Of a stretch of 64,000 bases of DNA, positions 2,379 through 47,051 are shown piece after piece (position 1 is the stretch's first letter; the number at the start of each line of letters is the position of its first letter). The translations under genes and the position numbers were made by a program. This DNA comes from Escherichia coli (GTDB lineage: Bacteria > Pseudomonadota > Gammaproteobacteria > Enterobacterales > Enterobacteriaceae), in assembly GCF_016903815.1 (NCBI RefSeq), contig NZ_CP069973.1. One strand, written 5' to 3'. A model generated the notes under the pieces. The model was not told the origin of the DNA. It was given only the letters and a program-made list of their open reading frames with translations, and did no database searches.

Positions 2379-3164
2379 TTAGCGCACTAAATAACCACCA
2401 TCAACCACTAATAAATGTCCGTTGACATAATTCGATGCCGGACTTGCGAGGAATACGGCTGCGCCCATTAAATCCTGAGTATCGCCCCAACGGTTTGCCG
2501 GAATATGATCAAGAACGCGCTGATTGGTTTCTGGATTACTGCGTGTCGCCAGCGTAATATCTGTTGCATAATAGCCAGGGGCAATACCATTTACCTGAAT
2601 ATTATATTGACCTAGTTCATCACAGTAAGCTTTGGTGAATCCGGCAAGAGCATGTTTAGTGGCAGAATATGCAGGTGACCATTGTCCACCTAAGTAAGAG
2701 AATAATGAACAGATATTAATGATTTTACCGCTTTTCTGCGGGATCATAATTTTTGCAGCTTCATAGCTTAACTCGAATGCGGCGGTCAGGTTCACATCAA
2801 TCATCGGGTCCCAGTCGGCACGACCGAAGTCCAGCACCTTATTCAGCTTACAAATACCGGCATTGTTAATCAGAATATCGACGGTACCGAAACGTTCGCA
2901 ACAGGCGGCGATTATCTTCTGCGGCGCTCCTTCTGCGGTGATATCCACCTGCATGAAGTCCACCTCAACACCCTGTTTTTCAATCATTTCCTTTGTTTCG
3001 CCGTTATCTTTAACGAAGCTTGGAATAAAGATATTTGCGCCTGCTTTGGCCAGCGCCATGGCAAATGCCTGGCCTAAACCGCTATTCCCGCCGGTAACAA
3101 TTGCGGTTTTACCTTTCAGGGAGAAAAAATCCATTGAGAGCGCATTGAGAGATTCGATTGACAT
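2379..3164 (-). CDS. ygcW: short-chain dehydrogenase/reductase (SDR)
   Basis: ORF 2379..3239; TGxxxGxG Rossmann motif (TAIVTGGNSGLG); start set at MSIESL with a GGAG RBS, giving 261 aa. Confidence 0.8.
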   Translation of the reverse strand: MSIESLNALSMDFFSLKGKTAIVTGGNSGLGQAFAMALAKAGANIFIPSFVKDNGETKEMIEKQGVEVDFMQVDITAEGAPQKIIAACCERFGTVDILINNAGICKLNKVLDFGRADWDPMIDVNLTAAFELSYEAAKIMIPQKSGKIINICSLFSYLGGQWSPAYSATKHALAGFTKAYCDELGQYNIQVNGIAPGYYATDITLATRSNPETNQRVLDHIPANRWGDTQDLMGAAVFLASPASNYVNGHLLVVDGGYLVR

Positions 3165-3188
3165 AGTTAGCTCCAATTTCCGTAAGGC

Positions 3189-3235
3189 AAAAAAAAAGAA
3201 AGGTAACTTCCCCCGCGAGAGGGAAGTTACCTTTC
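3189..3235 (-). terminator. Strong hairpin plus U9 tract on the minus strand, in the 5' leader of ygcW
   Basis: Perfect 15-bp stem gaaaggtaacttccc / gggaagttacctttc (3198-3212 / 3221-3235), 8-nt loop, nine A at 3189-3197 on plus (U-run on minus). Confidence 0.55.
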
Positions 3236-3288
3236 TCATTATCTCTGGTAACTGGAGATAATTTTTATCATAAGGGCATAATCGCTAA

Positions 3289-3304
3289 TGTGATCGTAAT
3301 CACA
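3289..3304. promoter_or_regulatory. Perfect-consensus CRP site (TGTGA-N6-TCACA) in the ygcW/yqcE divergent region
   Basis: tgtgatcgtaatcaca read directly; both half-sites match the CRP consensus. Confidence 0.55.
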
Positions 3305-3407
3305 GTGTGATATTCGAATTGTCAAATAATTTTAAAAAGCAGAAGCGTGATTACTCTCACACAACACCACTGCTTTCCATGTTATTTCTTATTGCAATTA
3401 CTAGAGA

Positions 3408-3460
3408 CCTGAGAAAAGTAATCCACCTGAAAGGGCGGCTTACTTTTCTCTTTTTTTTGT
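3408..3460 (+). terminator. Terminator-like hairpin plus T8 tract on the plus strand, in the 5' leader of yqcE
   Basis: Perfect 11-bp stem gagaaaagtaa / ttacttttctc with 23-nt loop, followed by tttttttt, ending 23 bp before the yqcE ATG. Confidence 0.4.
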
Positions 3461-3482
3461 CTATTACAAATGGGAATACGAT

Positions 3483-4760
3483 ATGCAACACAACTCATAT
3501 CGCCGTTGGATAGCCCTCGCGATAATTAGTTTTAGCGGCGGCGTTAGTTTCGACCTGGCTTATTTACGTTATATTTATCAAATTCCCATGGCGAAATTTA
3601 TGGGATTCAGCAATACCGAGATAGGTTTAATAATGAGTACATTTGGTATTGCGGCCATTATTCTTTATGCCCCCAGCGGCGTTATTGCCGATAAATTTTC
3701 ACACCGCAAAATGATTACTTCCGCGATGATCATTACCGGATTACTGGGTCTGTTAATGGCAACATATCCACCGCTGTGGGTAATGCTCTGTATTCAGGTC
3801 GCCTTTGCGATAACCACTATTTTAATGCTGTGGTCGGTGTCGATTAAAGCCGCCTCATTGCTGGGCGATCATAGCGAGCAAGGGAAAATTATGGGCTGGA
3901 TGGAAGGGCTGCGCGGCGTCGGTGTAATGTCGCTGGCGGTGTTTACCATGTGGGTCTTTTCTCGCTTCGCTCCGGATGACAGCGCCAGTCTGAAAACGGT
4001 CATCATCATCTATAGTGTGGTTTACATCTTGTTGGGGATTCTGTGCTGGTTTTTTGTTAGCGATAACAACAATCTGCGCAGTGCCAATAACGAAGAAAAA
4101 CAGTCATTCCAGCTTAGCGACATCCTGGCCGTTTTGCGCATCAGCACCACCTGGTATTGCAGCATGGTGATTTTTGGCGTCTTCACCATCTACGCCATTC
4201 TGAGTTACTCCACCAACTATCTGACCGAAATGTACGGCATGTCGCTGGTGGCGGCGAGCTACATGGGGATTGTGATCAACAAAATCTTCCGCGCGCTGTG
4301 CGGCCCACTTGGCGGCATTATCACCACCTACAGCAAAGTGAAATCCCCTACCCGCGTGATCCAAATCCTTTCCGTACTCGGCTTGCTGGCGTTAACTGCC
4401 CTGCTCGTCACGAACTCTAACCCGCAATCGGTCGCGATGGGGATTGGCCTGATTTTACTGCTGGGATTCACCTGTTACGCCTCACGCGGGCTGTACTGGG
4501 CCTGCCCTGGCGAAGCGAGAACACCGTCTTACATTATGGGCACCACGGTAGGTATTTGTTCGGTGATTGGATTCCTGCCGGATGTCTTCGTTTACCCGAT
4601 TATCGGCTACTGGCAAGACACCCTGCCCGCTGCAGAAGCCTACCGCAATATGTGGCTGATGGGCATGGCGGCGCTTGCCATGGTGATCGTCTTTACCTTT
4701 TTGCTGTTCCAAAAAATTCGTACTGCTGATAGCGCCCCTGCTATGGCTAGCAGCAAGTAA
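3483..4760 (+). CDS. yqcE: MFS-family transporter
   Basis: 425-aa ORF, multiple hydrophobic segments; synteny. Confidence 0.85.
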   Translation: MQHNSYRRWIALAIISFSGGVSFDLAYLRYIYQIPMAKFMGFSNTEIGLIMSTFGIAAIILYAPSGVIADKFSHRKMITSAMIITGLLGLLMATYPPLWVMLCIQVAFAITTILMLWSVSIKAASLLGDHSEQGKIMGWMEGLRGVGVMSLAVFTMWVFSRFAPDDSASLKTVIIIYSVVYILLGILCWFFVSDNNNLRSANNEEKQSFQLSDILAVLRISTTWYCSMVIFGVFTIYAILSYSTNYLTEMYGMSLVAASYMGIVINKIFRALCGPLGGIITTYSKVKSPTRVIQILSVLGLLALTALLVTNSNPQSVAMGIGLILLLGFTCYASRGLYWACPGEARTPSYIMGTTVGICSVIGFLPDVFVYPIIGYWQDTLPAAEAYRNMWLMGMAALAMVIVFTFLLFQKIRTADSAPAMASSK

Positions 4761-4786: not shown

Positions 4787-6265
4787 ATGTCGAAAAAATA
4801 CATCATAGGGATTGATGGTGGAAGTCAGAGCACAAAAGTGGTGATGTACGATCTGGAAGGTAATGTGGTTTGCGAAGGCAAAGGCTTATTGCAGCCGATG
4901 CACACGCCAGATGCCGATACCGCAGAACATCCTGACGACGATTTATGGGCATCATTATGCTTTGCCGGTCACGATTTGATGAGTCAGTTTGCCGGAAATA
5001 AAGAAGATATTGTCGGTATTGGTCTGGGATCCATCCGTTGCTGCCGTGCGTTATTGAAAGCCGATGGCACGCCAGCTGCGCCGTTGATTAGCTGGCAGGA
5101 TGCACGCGTTACACGCCCTTACGAACATACGAATCCTGACGTGGCATATGTCACCTCTTTTTCGGGTTATCTGACGCATCGCTTAACCGGCGAGTTTAAA
5201 GACAATATCGCCAACTATTTTGGTCAGTGGCCGGTGGATTATAAGACCTGGGCATGGAGTGAAGATGCCGCAGTCATGGAGAAGTTTAATATCCCCCGTC
5301 ATATGCTGTTTGATGTGCAAATGCCGGGCACTGTTCTTGGGCATATCACTCCTCAAGCCGCTCTGGCGACACATTTCCCGGCTGGGCTGCCGGTTGTTTG
5401 TACCACCAGTGATAAACCGGTAGAAGCACTGGGAGCCGGGTTACTGGATGATGAAACTGCGGTAATTTCTCTTGGCACTTACATCGCGTTGATGATGAAC
5501 GGCAAATTACTACCGAAAGATCCGGTAGCGTACTGGCCGATTATGTCTTCTATTCCGCAAACCTTGCTGTATGAAGGTTACGGTATTCGCAAAGGCATGT
5601 GGACGGTGAGCTGGCTACGCGACATGTTAGGCGAGTCGTTAATTCAGGATGCCAAAGCACAGGATCTTTCACCGGAAGATTTGCTCAACAAAAAAGCGTC
5701 TTGTGTGCCGCCAGGCTGTAATGGTCTGATGACGGTGCTGGACTGGCTGACCAATCCGTGGGAACCGTACAAACGCGGGATTATGATTGGCTTTGATTCC
5801 AGCATGGATTACGCATGGATATATCGTTCGATACTGGAAAGCGTGGCGCTGACGCTGAAGAACAATTACGACAATATGTGTAATGAAATGAATCACTTTG
5901 CAAAGCATGTGATCATTACTGGCGGCGGTTCGAACAGCGATCTGTTTATGCAGATTTTTGCCGACGTGTTCAACCTTCCGGCACGCCGTAACGCCATTAA
6001 TGGTTGTGCAAGCCTGGGGGCAGCGATTAATACGGCGGTAGGTCTGGGGCTATACCCGGATTACGCAACGGCTGTCGACAAAATGGTTCGCGTGAAAGAT
6101 ATCTTTATGCCTGTTGAGAGCAACGCCAAACGCTACAACGCGATGAATAAAGGCATTTTCAAGGAGTTAACCAAACATACTGATGTAATCCTGAAAAAAT
6201 CGTATGAAGTGATGCATGGGGAATTGGGGAATGCGGATTCGATCCAGAGCTGGTCGAATGCGTAA
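4787..6265 (+). CDS. ygcE: FGGY-family carbohydrate kinase
   Basis: 492-aa ORF with N-terminal IGIDGGSQSTK kinase motif; synteny. Confidence 0.85.
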   Translation: MSKKYIIGIDGGSQSTKVVMYDLEGNVVCEGKGLLQPMHTPDADTAEHPDDDLWASLCFAGHDLMSQFAGNKEDIVGIGLGSIRCCRALLKADGTPAAPLISWQDARVTRPYEHTNPDVAYVTSFSGYLTHRLTGEFKDNIANYFGQWPVDYKTWAWSEDAAVMEKFNIPRHMLFDVQMPGTVLGHITPQAALATHFPAGLPVVCTTSDKPVEALGAGLLDDETAVISLGTYIALMMNGKLLPKDPVAYWPIMSSIPQTLLYEGYGIRKGMWTVSWLRDMLGESLIQDAKAQDLSPEDLLNKKASCVPPGCNGLMTVLDWLTNPWEPYKRGIMIGFDSSMDYAWIYRSILESVALTLKNNYDNMCNEMNHFAKHVIITGGGSNSDLFMQIFADVFNLPARRNAINGCASLGAAINTAVGLGLYPDYATAVDKMVRVKDIFMPVESNAKRYNAMNKGIFKELTKHTDVILKKSYEVMHGELGNADSIQSWSNA

Positions 6266-6449: not shown

Positions 6450-6902
6450 TAACTACACTCGATGTCTTTAGAATAAAAGACAATACGAATCGCACTTTAT
6501 CAATTTTCACTTAAAGTATGAACTGGATATCTTTATTCATAAGAACTATTCATCAACAGCGTATAGAGGCGATTATGTAAAACCACTCATTAGCCTCAAA
6601 ACAAAGACAAATTTCCAGATTTATTACTTAATCAATGAATAACAAGCTTAAAAAATACACTGTTATTCTAAAGAAAAAATTAACAGGCATTAATTAATAT
6701 TAAAAAAATAATATGTTAAAATTTCTTAACGGTTTAAGGATTATACAAATAACACTTTGATTAAATTTGATTTTTTGTATCGATAATTGTGAACTTCTCA
6801 TATATGGAGAGCTATTTTGAACATGAGGTGTTACGTGGATATGTTGCTTAATACGAGTACTGCTAATATAAAAACTTGAGAAAGAGATAACGGGTTATAT
6901 GG

Positions 6903-7236
6903 TGGTTTATTCCCGCTGGTGCGGGGAACTCATCAGTGATATCCAACATTGCGGAGCTAAACGCGGTTTATCCCCGCTGGCGCGGGGAACTCTAATATCC
7001 CTGGCGATAATCAACCGGCTTACTCGGTTTATCCCCGCTGGCGCGGGGAACTCGAGAGCGAGGGGAGATTCCGGCAGGGCGTGCACGGTTTATCCCCGCT
7101 GGCGCGGGGAACTCGCGGGTATGCTCCGCTCCGTGTTCGACAAACTCGGTTTATCCCCGCTGGCGCGGGGAACTCAAGGTCGCGGGGACGCCACGGGCAG
7201 TCAATGTCGGTTTATCCCCGCTGGCGCGGGGAACTC
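6903..7236 (-). CRISPR. Type I-E CRISPR array, 6 repeats and 5 spacers, transcribed on the minus strand
   Basis: 29-bp repeats at 6903-6931 (3 mismatches, leader-distal), 6964-6992, 7025-7053, 7086-7114, 7147-7175, 7208-7236; five 32-bp spacers at 6932-6963, 6993-7024, 7054-7085, 7115-7146, 7176-7207. Confidence 0.95.
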
Positions 7237-9471: not shown

Positions 9472-10785
<1,314 letters not shown>

Positions 10786-43003: not shown

Positions 43004-43226
43004 GATCGCCTTTTAAAGCTATTTTAGGTATACAAATTAGCCAAATCATTTGAGTTAAAACTGTGATGCATAACCATTAAAATCTAATAACCATATGATT
43101 ATACGTAAAATTTATTTTTCTCCCGCTAAATAATAATTTGACAGAGATCGTATTTTAACCACTTCTCGTGAAGCCCCTCACATTTCAACAACAAAAAAGT
43201 TGTGCATAAAAAGCCTACAAACCTAA

Positions 43227-46628: not shown

Positions 46629-47051
46629 ATGCTGAAAACAATTTCGCCGTTAATTTCTCCCGAACTATTGAAAGTGCTGGCAGAGATGGGACATGGAGAT
46701 GAAATTATTTTTTCCGATGCTCACTTTCCCGCCCATTCGATGGGACCGCAGGTGATCCGCGCTGATGGCCTGTTGGTGAGCGACTTGCTCCAGGCGATTA
46801 TCCCGTTATTTGAACTGGACAGTTACGCACCGCCGCTGGTGATGATGGCAGCGGTAGAAGGTGACACTCTCGATCCTGAAGTAGAACGACGTTACCGTAA
46901 TGCGCTTTCACTACAAGCCCCGTGTCCTGACATCATCCGCATCAATCGTTTTGCGTTTTATGAACGGGCGCAAAAAGCCTTTGCGATCGTTATCACAGGC
47001 GAACGAGCGAAGTACGGGAATATTCTTTTAAAAAAAGGGGTAACACCGTAA
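46629..47051 (+). CDS. fucU: L-fucose mutarotase
   Basis: 140-aa ORF; synteny. Confidence 0.93.

Follow-up and report, generated by a model that had tools for sequence, protein, structure and literature searches.

The 318-bp spacer between the divergent Escherichia coli genes ygcW and yqcE contains two conserved CRP sites and two paralogous leader RNAs, and these likely make up two CRP-dependent promoter units, each with a leader attenuator that would be gated by YgcP, a GlpP-type protein encoded in the same gene cluster. The initial annotation of the 64-kb stretch of E. coli DNA analyzed here (the window) had reported a perfect CRP consensus in this spacer, lying between two leader hairpins, and had read it as a sign of catabolite control over an operon pair for which no substrate is established. 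Our analysis supports this interpretation, which had in substance been published already and which is incomplete in that the second CRP site and the leader terminators are missing from it.

Window positions 3289–3304 read TGTGATCGTAATCACA (site 1, center 3296.5), an exact TGTGA-N6-TCACA that agrees with the consensus at 10 of 10 half-site positions and also at the flanking T and A of TGTGAT/ATCACA. With both strands searched, it is the sole exact match in the 64 kb; shuffled controls gave a mean of 0.06 exact matches, with at least one match in 6 of 100 shuffles. To its left lies ygcW (2379–3164, − strand; SDR oxidoreductase by K-12 annotation and Pfam adh_short), the first gene of a leftward operon that continues with ygcU and then ygcS and onward, and to its right lie yqcE (3483–4760, + strand; MFS transporter) and ygcE (4787–6265, + strand; FGGY kinase), the first and second genes of the yqcE-ygcE operon. 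The spacer is bounded by the ATGs at 3164 (−) and 3483 (+), nothing is annotated within it in RefSeq, and terminator-like hairpins at 3237–3196 (−) and ~3411–3450 (+) flank site 1, in keeping with the position first described for it. The window sequence is 100% identical to that of several non-K-12 E. coli strains, and the K-12 spacer differs from it by 7 substitutions, none of which falls in the CRP sites, the −10 core or the leader elements discussed below (the extended −10 of ygcW differs at the n position only). Of the complete E. coli genomes, 93% carry the cluster, ygcNOPQRSUW/yqcE-ygcE. In strains B20105 and 405 the match to our 2.5-kb query is split in two, an IS1 transposase is annotated in between, and two SDR features stand where other strains have a single ygcW, which suggests an IS1 insertion in or near ygcW in these two strains.

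For comparison we assembled 59 loci across Enterobacterales by a one-genome-per-species scan with YqcE, and in all 59 ygcU-ygcW diverges from yqcE-ygcE. A CRP-like site with at most two mismatches occurs at the position of site 1 in 54 of 54 loci; 52 of these retain the TGTGA half, and the N6 is highly variable. Half-sites that are conserved around a free N6 in 50-odd Enterobacterales species indicate that site 1 is under selection and is not a chance match, and the 16-mer is virtually certain to be a functional CRP site. Two one-mismatch CRP-like sites were also seen in the window, CGTGAAGCCCCTCACA at 43167–43182 and TGCGATCGTTATCACA at 46982–46997, the latter being identical to the (fucU)/fucR site in the ChIP-seq table for enterotoxigenic E. 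coli (ETEC) (PMC4287617).

That CRP binds site 1 is already known: binding has been predicted since at least 2007, when PhyloScan placed ygcW/yqcE among its top CRP predictions (PMC1794230), and measured since 2015. The lookup of CRP ChIP-seq data proposed in the initial annotation returned, for ETEC H10407 (2015), a ygcW/yqcE peak assigned to TGTGATTACGATCACA, the reverse complement of site 1 (PMC4287617). In vitro Footprint-seq on MG1655 DNA (2026 preprint) gives a Kd of ~1.7 nM at 2900412 for acTGTGAttacgaTCACAtta, a position labeled “novel” in the sense of lying more than 500 bp from any CRP site in RegulonDB v12 (PMC12871828). Li et al. (2021) list yqcE-ygcE under “Crp activation” as a new target found by crp-deletion RNA-seq, with a promoter that bound Crp in EMSA; the reported Crp dependence covers yqcE-ygcE, and ygcW is not among the listed targets (PMC8085971). 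CRP binding, as well as catabolite control of at least the rightward operon, is in the literature, and the catabolite-control reading of site 1 agrees with it. The ChIP-seq, Footprint-seq and EMSA assignments name site 1 only; ChIP-seq is too coarse to separate two sites 57 bp apart. RNA polymerase and H-NS binding in the spacer were recorded by RpoD SELEX, the promoters there being termed “constitutive” (PMC3946193), and rightward transcription out of the spacer was seen in vitro with a run-off array (PMC3141248).

A second CRP site, which had escaped the initial annotation and is conserved equally to site 1, lies at 3346–3361 (CGTGATTACTCTCACA, one mismatch, center 3353.5). By script, at most one mismatch is found at this site 2 in 56 of 58 loci, the other two being anchoring errors at loci that also have one-mismatch sites. 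Almost every spacer among the loci compared carries two CRP-like sites in which the half-sites are kept and the N6 is free. The distance between the two centers, 57 bp in E. coli, ranges from 36 to 246 bp among the loci, whereas each site keeps its distance to the leader on its own side, with site 1 lying 44.5 bp from the ygcW leader in 41 of 54 loci and site 2 lying 43.5 bp from the yqcE leader in 36 of 58. This combination of fixed distances to the leaders with a variable distance between the sites indicates that site 1 serves ygcW and site 2 serves yqcE.

Downstream of each site we find a conserved TGnTA that we assign to an extended −10 element: TGaTAAAAA at 3262–3270 (− strand) for the ygcW promoter and TGtTATTTC at 3380–3388 (+ strand) for the yqcE promoter. 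On the ygcW side the hexamer that follows TGn starts 29.5–31.5 bp from the center of site 1 in 54 of 54 loci, and on the yqcE side it starts 29.5–30.5 bp from the center of site 2 in 55 of 58. Taking this hexamer as −12 to −7 puts CRP at −41.5 to −43.5, which is a class II arrangement, and on the basis of this conserved −10-like element we infer that CRP is centered at about −41.5 to −43.5 at both promoters, where it would replace the −35 element. Site 1 is probably, then, the class II activator site of the ygcW promoter, with yqcE using site 2 in the same manner, a proposal in which site 1 brings its exactness, uniqueness, conservation and published binding and site 2 is predicted from its conservation. 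The best match of a leftward promoter scan, ATCACA-16-TATGAT, was discarded: it would place CRP at −36.5, its TATGAT reads TATGCT in K-12, and only TGnTA is conserved.

Read in the direction of transcription, the two halves of the spacer display conserved blocks in an identical order: YGTGA-N6-TCACR, 18–19 variable bases, RTGnTA, ~10 bases, and then, in the leader, (C)A-GUUACY-(0 or 3 nt)-AGAG, 3–5 nt, GAGAAARGUAAY, a stem-loop, RUURCY-UUUCUY and a U-tract. The two promoter-plus-leader units are inverted paralogues of each other. The conserved CA that opens the leader block is the expected point of initiation, and transcription would accordingly be predicted to start at ~3253–3255 (−) for ygcW and at ~3395–3396 (+) for yqcE. 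The same organization is seen in Vibrio hannami, where the SDR leader is preceded by a perfect TGTGAAAATGCTCACA with TGaTATAAC and the kinase leader by CATGActtgttTCACA with TGaTATAAA. At 3238–3262 (+ strand) a perfect 11-bp inverted repeat, ATTATCTCTGG-TAA-CTGGAGATAAT, overlaps the predicted ygcW start. We considered it as a regulator site or an RNA hairpin and rejected both, as it is not conserved beyond Escherichia (it is partial in Klebsiella) and its 5′ arm lies upstream of the predicted start; the repeat probably arose by chance where AT-rich promoter sequence borders the conserved AGAGA.

The two E. coli leaders are paralogous RNAs of ~65 nt each that can be aligned over ~90 nt, and both are delineated by alignment, pair counts, a covariance model, folding and Term-seq. 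In the ygcW leader (3189–3254, − strand), GUUACC at 3252–3247 is predicted to pair with GGUAAC at 3231–3226 in an antiterminator helix, and the terminator stem occupies 3237–3196, followed by a U-tract to 3189. In the yqcE leader (3395–3458, + strand) the predicted antiterminator helix joins AUUACU at 3397–3402 to AGUAAU at 3417–3422, the terminator stem spans 3411–3450 and the U-tract 3451–3458. In an alignment of 95 distinct leaders the terminator helix is 91.7% paired, with changes on both sides at 7 of 17 pairs, and the antiterminator helix, which joins the 5′ GUUACY to RGUAAY of the 5′ arm of the terminator, is 93.7% paired. The latter shows compensatory changes at three pairs (G:C/A:U 67/27, U:A/C:G 69/22 and one A:U to G:C), which amount to few independent events, namely ~3 within Enterobacterales and 2–3 more in Firmicutes, where the variants GUUGCU/AGCGAA, GGCGCU/AGCGAA and AUUACU/AGUAAU add to the compensation. 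The observed covariation was reached in 0 of 500 shuffles, and controls in which the helix was slid along the alignment were 15–54% paired. A C-to-U change at column 33 in the yqcE-type leaders is compensated in the antiterminator helix (G3 to A3) and not in the terminator, which argues that the 5′ helix is itself under selection.

The predicted energies of the competing folds are far apart. The terminator folds with −31.2 kcal/mol in the ygcW leader (z −6.8) and with −20.7 kcal/mol in the yqcE leader, against −6.2 and −1.4 kcal/mol, respectively, for the antiterminator helix alone, so that a stabilizing factor or protein would be needed to favor the antiterminator. A covariance model built from the enterobacterial leaders (R1) scores the ygcW leader at 80.8 bits and the yqcE leader at 74.7 bits and finds exactly two copies per enterobacterial locus; it detects no extra copy elsewhere in the 64-kb window, upstream of ygcN or ygcS, or in the ygcN-ygcP region. 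A search of window positions 3000–3700 against Rfam up to E = 10 returned spurious sub-threshold matches only and no relevant family.

Published Term-seq data (LB, OD 0.4) place RNA 3′ ends in both leaders, at MG1655 position 2900311 (−), 38 nt before ygcW, with a count of 40,640 and an intrinsic-terminator score of 15.8, and at 2900556 (+), 36 nt before yqcE, with a count of 1,557 and a score of 11.4; both ends are classed as Rho-independent and carry no regulatory annotation in that data set (PMC7815308). Both promoters are thus active in LB, and the leader is where both transcripts end. In window coordinates the ends fall at 3202 (−) and 3447 (+), that is, at the base of the long hairpins or 4 nt inside them and not in the U-tracts, which suggests either 3′ trimming or that the upper stem alone (GGUAACUUCCC…GGGAAGUUACC) is the terminator, in which case GAGAAA would be single-stranded and accessible to protein. 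The list of open reading frames contains a 286-residue version of YgcW (2379–3239, − strand) starting at an in-frame ATG inside the leader (AUGAGAAAGG), as against the 261 residues of the K-12 annotation with its start at 3164. This upstream AUG belongs to the conserved RNA motif, and we rejected it both as the ygcW start and as the start of a leader peptide, as it is not conserved in the paralogous leaders and is absent from most yqcE-type leaders. In Klebsiella spallanzanii (locus L007, ~9852–10000) and Citrobacter youngae (locus L009) some 130 bp (…GGGTGAGTGAACGCAGCCAACGCATCAGCAACTTGAAGTATGAAGGGTATA…) separate the yqcE leader terminator from the start codon, and similar tails occur in the Serratia loci L040–L042 and in L059; this insert resembles an ERIC/IRU intergenic repeat.

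YgcP matches PF04309 (G3P_antiterm) over the full length of the profile (positions 1–173 of 173, E 1.4e-62) and is related to Listeria GlpP (PDB 3KTS, E 1e-27), with an identity that we estimate from the alignment at ~35%. Wherever the flanking sequence suffices, its gene is found in synteny with the divergent pair, and it stays nearby even in rearranged clusters, following ygcE in Serratia, Pantoea and Erwinia. More distant homologues, of 54–62% identity, were found in Vibrio, Clostridium, Thalassobacillus, Fodinisporobacter and one further genome, and the genes of all five have SDR, FGGY-kinase and FAD-oxidase genes as neighbors, joined in some cases by ETF genes. In these distant genomes R1 places the leader motif immediately before the SDR, kinase or oxidase genes with E-values from 8e-12 to 3e-5, together with a weaker match (E 0.004) upstream of the Fodinisporobacter oxidase gene; the motif lies at 6515–6583 and 6872–6945 in locus L061, 7268–7328 and 9751–9811 in L062, 9784–9846 in L063, 8721–8781 in L064, and 10347–10406 and 10175–10234 in L065. 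A ~65-nt motif of GUUACU, AGAG, GAGAAAAGUAAC, hairpin and U-tract is thus conserved from E. coli to Clostridia and Bacillota, always near a YgcP-type gene. In Firmicutes it begins 5–12 nt after a TTGACA-17-TATACT promoter, so that in this group as well the transcript has the GUUACU segment at its 5′ end. Two glp-type GlpP loci, L066 and L067, lack the YgcP-type motif (E above 1) despite having leader terminators, which indicates that the leader RNA is specific to the YgcP subfamily. Across phyla the module retains its enzymes and exchanges its transporter: enterobacteria have an MFS protein, Vibrio, Clostridium and Thalassobacillus a BCCT protein, and Fodinisporobacter an OpuA-type ABC system. 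This hints at a possible substrate that is small, polar and compatible-solute-like, and not a classical sugar.

From this co-occurrence, YgcP is more likely than not the antiterminator that acts on both leaders. With the same modest degree of confidence, we favor the view that the leaders are RNA targets of YgcP and that they define an uncharacterized antitermination module that crosses phyla, comprising a distinct GlpP subfamily, the ~65-nt GUUACU-AGAG-GAGAAAAGUAAC RNA, an SDR/FGGY-kinase/FAD-oxidase/ETF pathway, and interchangeable MFS, BCCT or OpuA-type transporters. Our search of the literature on ygcP and the function of the cluster yielded nothing substantive, neither an established substrate, in line with what the initial annotation had stated, nor a description of a YgcP-dependent layer of antitermination.

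Several other readings of the spacer were weighed against this proposal. The malX-malI region, where divergent class II promoters share one CRP site, resembles ygcW/yqcE as proposed here in that a short spacer holds divergent class II promoters that depend on CRP, and differs in that each ygcW/yqcE promoter has its own conserved CRP site and that the spacing between the sites is not conserved. One CRP dimer can reportedly drive divergent promoters, as found by El-Robh and Busby, and in E. coli site 1 alone might serve both operons in this manner if AATAAT at 3325–3330 were the −10 element of yqcE: it ends 7 nt before 3338, and a start at ~3338 would lie 41.5 bp from the center of site 1, the only site named in the published assignments. 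However, conservation of AATAAT, and of the stretch that separates the two sites, already fails in Klebsiella and Citrobacter; taxa differ by more than 200 bp in how far yqcE lies from site 1; and a start at 3338 would put site 2 at +15, within the transcript, whereas site 2 and its TGnTA are conserved in 55–56 of 58 loci at a fixed spacing to the yqcE leader. We regard a single shared site as distinctly unlikely. Still less probable is a role of CRP mainly as a repressor or architectural binder, for instance one that occludes a constitutive leftward promoter (TTGACA at 3325–3320, ~16 nt, TGTGAT) in an H-NS-silenced region. Many high-affinity CRP sites have no measurable effect on transcription, and the − strand has a perfect TTGACA at 3325–3320. 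RpoD SELEX lists TTGACA-16-TGTGAT for ygcW in a spacer bound by H-NS (PMC3946193), but this TTGACA is not conserved outside Escherichia, the CRP site, TGnTA and leader keep a fixed spacing from Escherichia to Vibrio, and the sole in vivo data set reports activation (PMC8085971).

The leader hairpins, for their part, might be constitutive terminators that give rise to short RNAs, or might be controlled by a riboswitch or a leader peptide instead of YgcP. The abundance of the terminated ygcW leader RNA in LB (the Term-seq count of 40,640) would fit such a reading, as would the AUG in the ygcW leader that is in frame with ygcW (ORF 2379–3239), and the link between YgcP and the RNA comes from co-occurrence. 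Against this, the absence of that AUG from most yqcE-type leaders makes a leader peptide unlikely, known riboswitch aptamers are more complex than a 65-nt RNA with a 6-bp alternative helix, for which no Rfam family was matched either, and the near-invariance of GAGAAAAGUAAC, AGAG and GUUACU across phyla, combined with strict co-occurrence with a G3P_antiterm gene, points to recognition by a protein. Constitutive termination at the hairpins, or control of the leaders by something other than YgcP, is unlikely, if a little less so than a shared CRP site. As far as comparative sequence evidence goes, the pattern of conservation argues against all three of these readings, and our preferred interpretation remains that of two CRP promoter units with YgcP-gated leaders.

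Elements of this arrangement have counterparts in known systems. As in the class II CRP promoters galP1, melR and CC(−41.5), a consensus 16-bp site would lie ~41.5 bp upstream of the (here predicted) start, replace the −35 element and rely on an (extended) −10; at ygcW/yqcE two such units face away from each other, at a distance of 57 bp in E. coli, and a leader terminator follows each. The E. coli bgl operon shares the proposed logic of CRP-dependent initiation, a leader terminator and a specific RNA-binding antiterminator, and both systems have a link to H-NS, whereas YgcP is a PF04309 G3P_antiterm protein and not a BglG/SacY-type CAT-PRD protein, its RNA motif bears no relation to RAT, and no PTS link is evident. 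In the B. subtilis glp regulon, GlpP together with glycerol-3-phosphate overrides the terminators in the glpD, glpFK and glpTQ leaders, and glpFK is subject to CcpA-mediated catabolite repression (PMC9604022, PMC10573289). The ygc/yqc system shares with this regulon the regulator family, a promoter-proximal leader terminator and layered catabolite control, and its FGGY kinase could make a phosphorylated inducer following the same logic. The two are set apart by the identity of YgcP to Listeria GlpP (~35% by our estimate, 3KTS) compared to 54–62% within its own subfamily across phyla, and by a YgcP neighborhood of SDR, FGGY-kinase and FAD-oxidase/ETF genes in place of glpFK and glpD.

Taken as a whole, the model would work as follows. 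At high cAMP, CRP would occupy sites 1 and 2 and activate the ygcW and yqcE promoters by a class II mechanism: site 1 would overlap the −35 position of a ygcW promoter that has an extended −10 only and so activate the leftward ygcW-ygcU operon, making ygcW CRP-dependent as well, and site 2 would bear the same relation to the yqcE-ygcE promoter with its TGtTATTTC. Both transcripts would open with GUUACY-AGAG-N-GAGAAARGUAAY followed by the hairpin and U-tract, and by default the leader would fold into the intrinsic terminator, ending transcription 36–38 nt before the start codon. Read-through would probably need YgcP, which would stabilize the weak helix between GUUACY and the 5′ arm of the terminator and would presumably be active when bound to a phosphorylated pathway intermediate made by the YgcE kinase. 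Expression would then require two conditions, low glucose, sensed through CRP, and a specific inducer, sensed through YgcP.

The CRP site by itself is not new; what makes it valuable is the setting, in which a second CRP site and conserved YgcP-type attenuators accompany it. The model offers a reason for the silence of the cluster in standard media despite CRP binding, as its transcripts would stop at the leader. If it holds, E. coli would possess a GlpP-type antiterminator under CRP control, and the ligand that makes YgcP antiterminate would provide a direct route to the substrate of the cluster. The regulatory architecture thereby makes both the regulation and the substrate of this orphan, widely conserved cluster directly testable.
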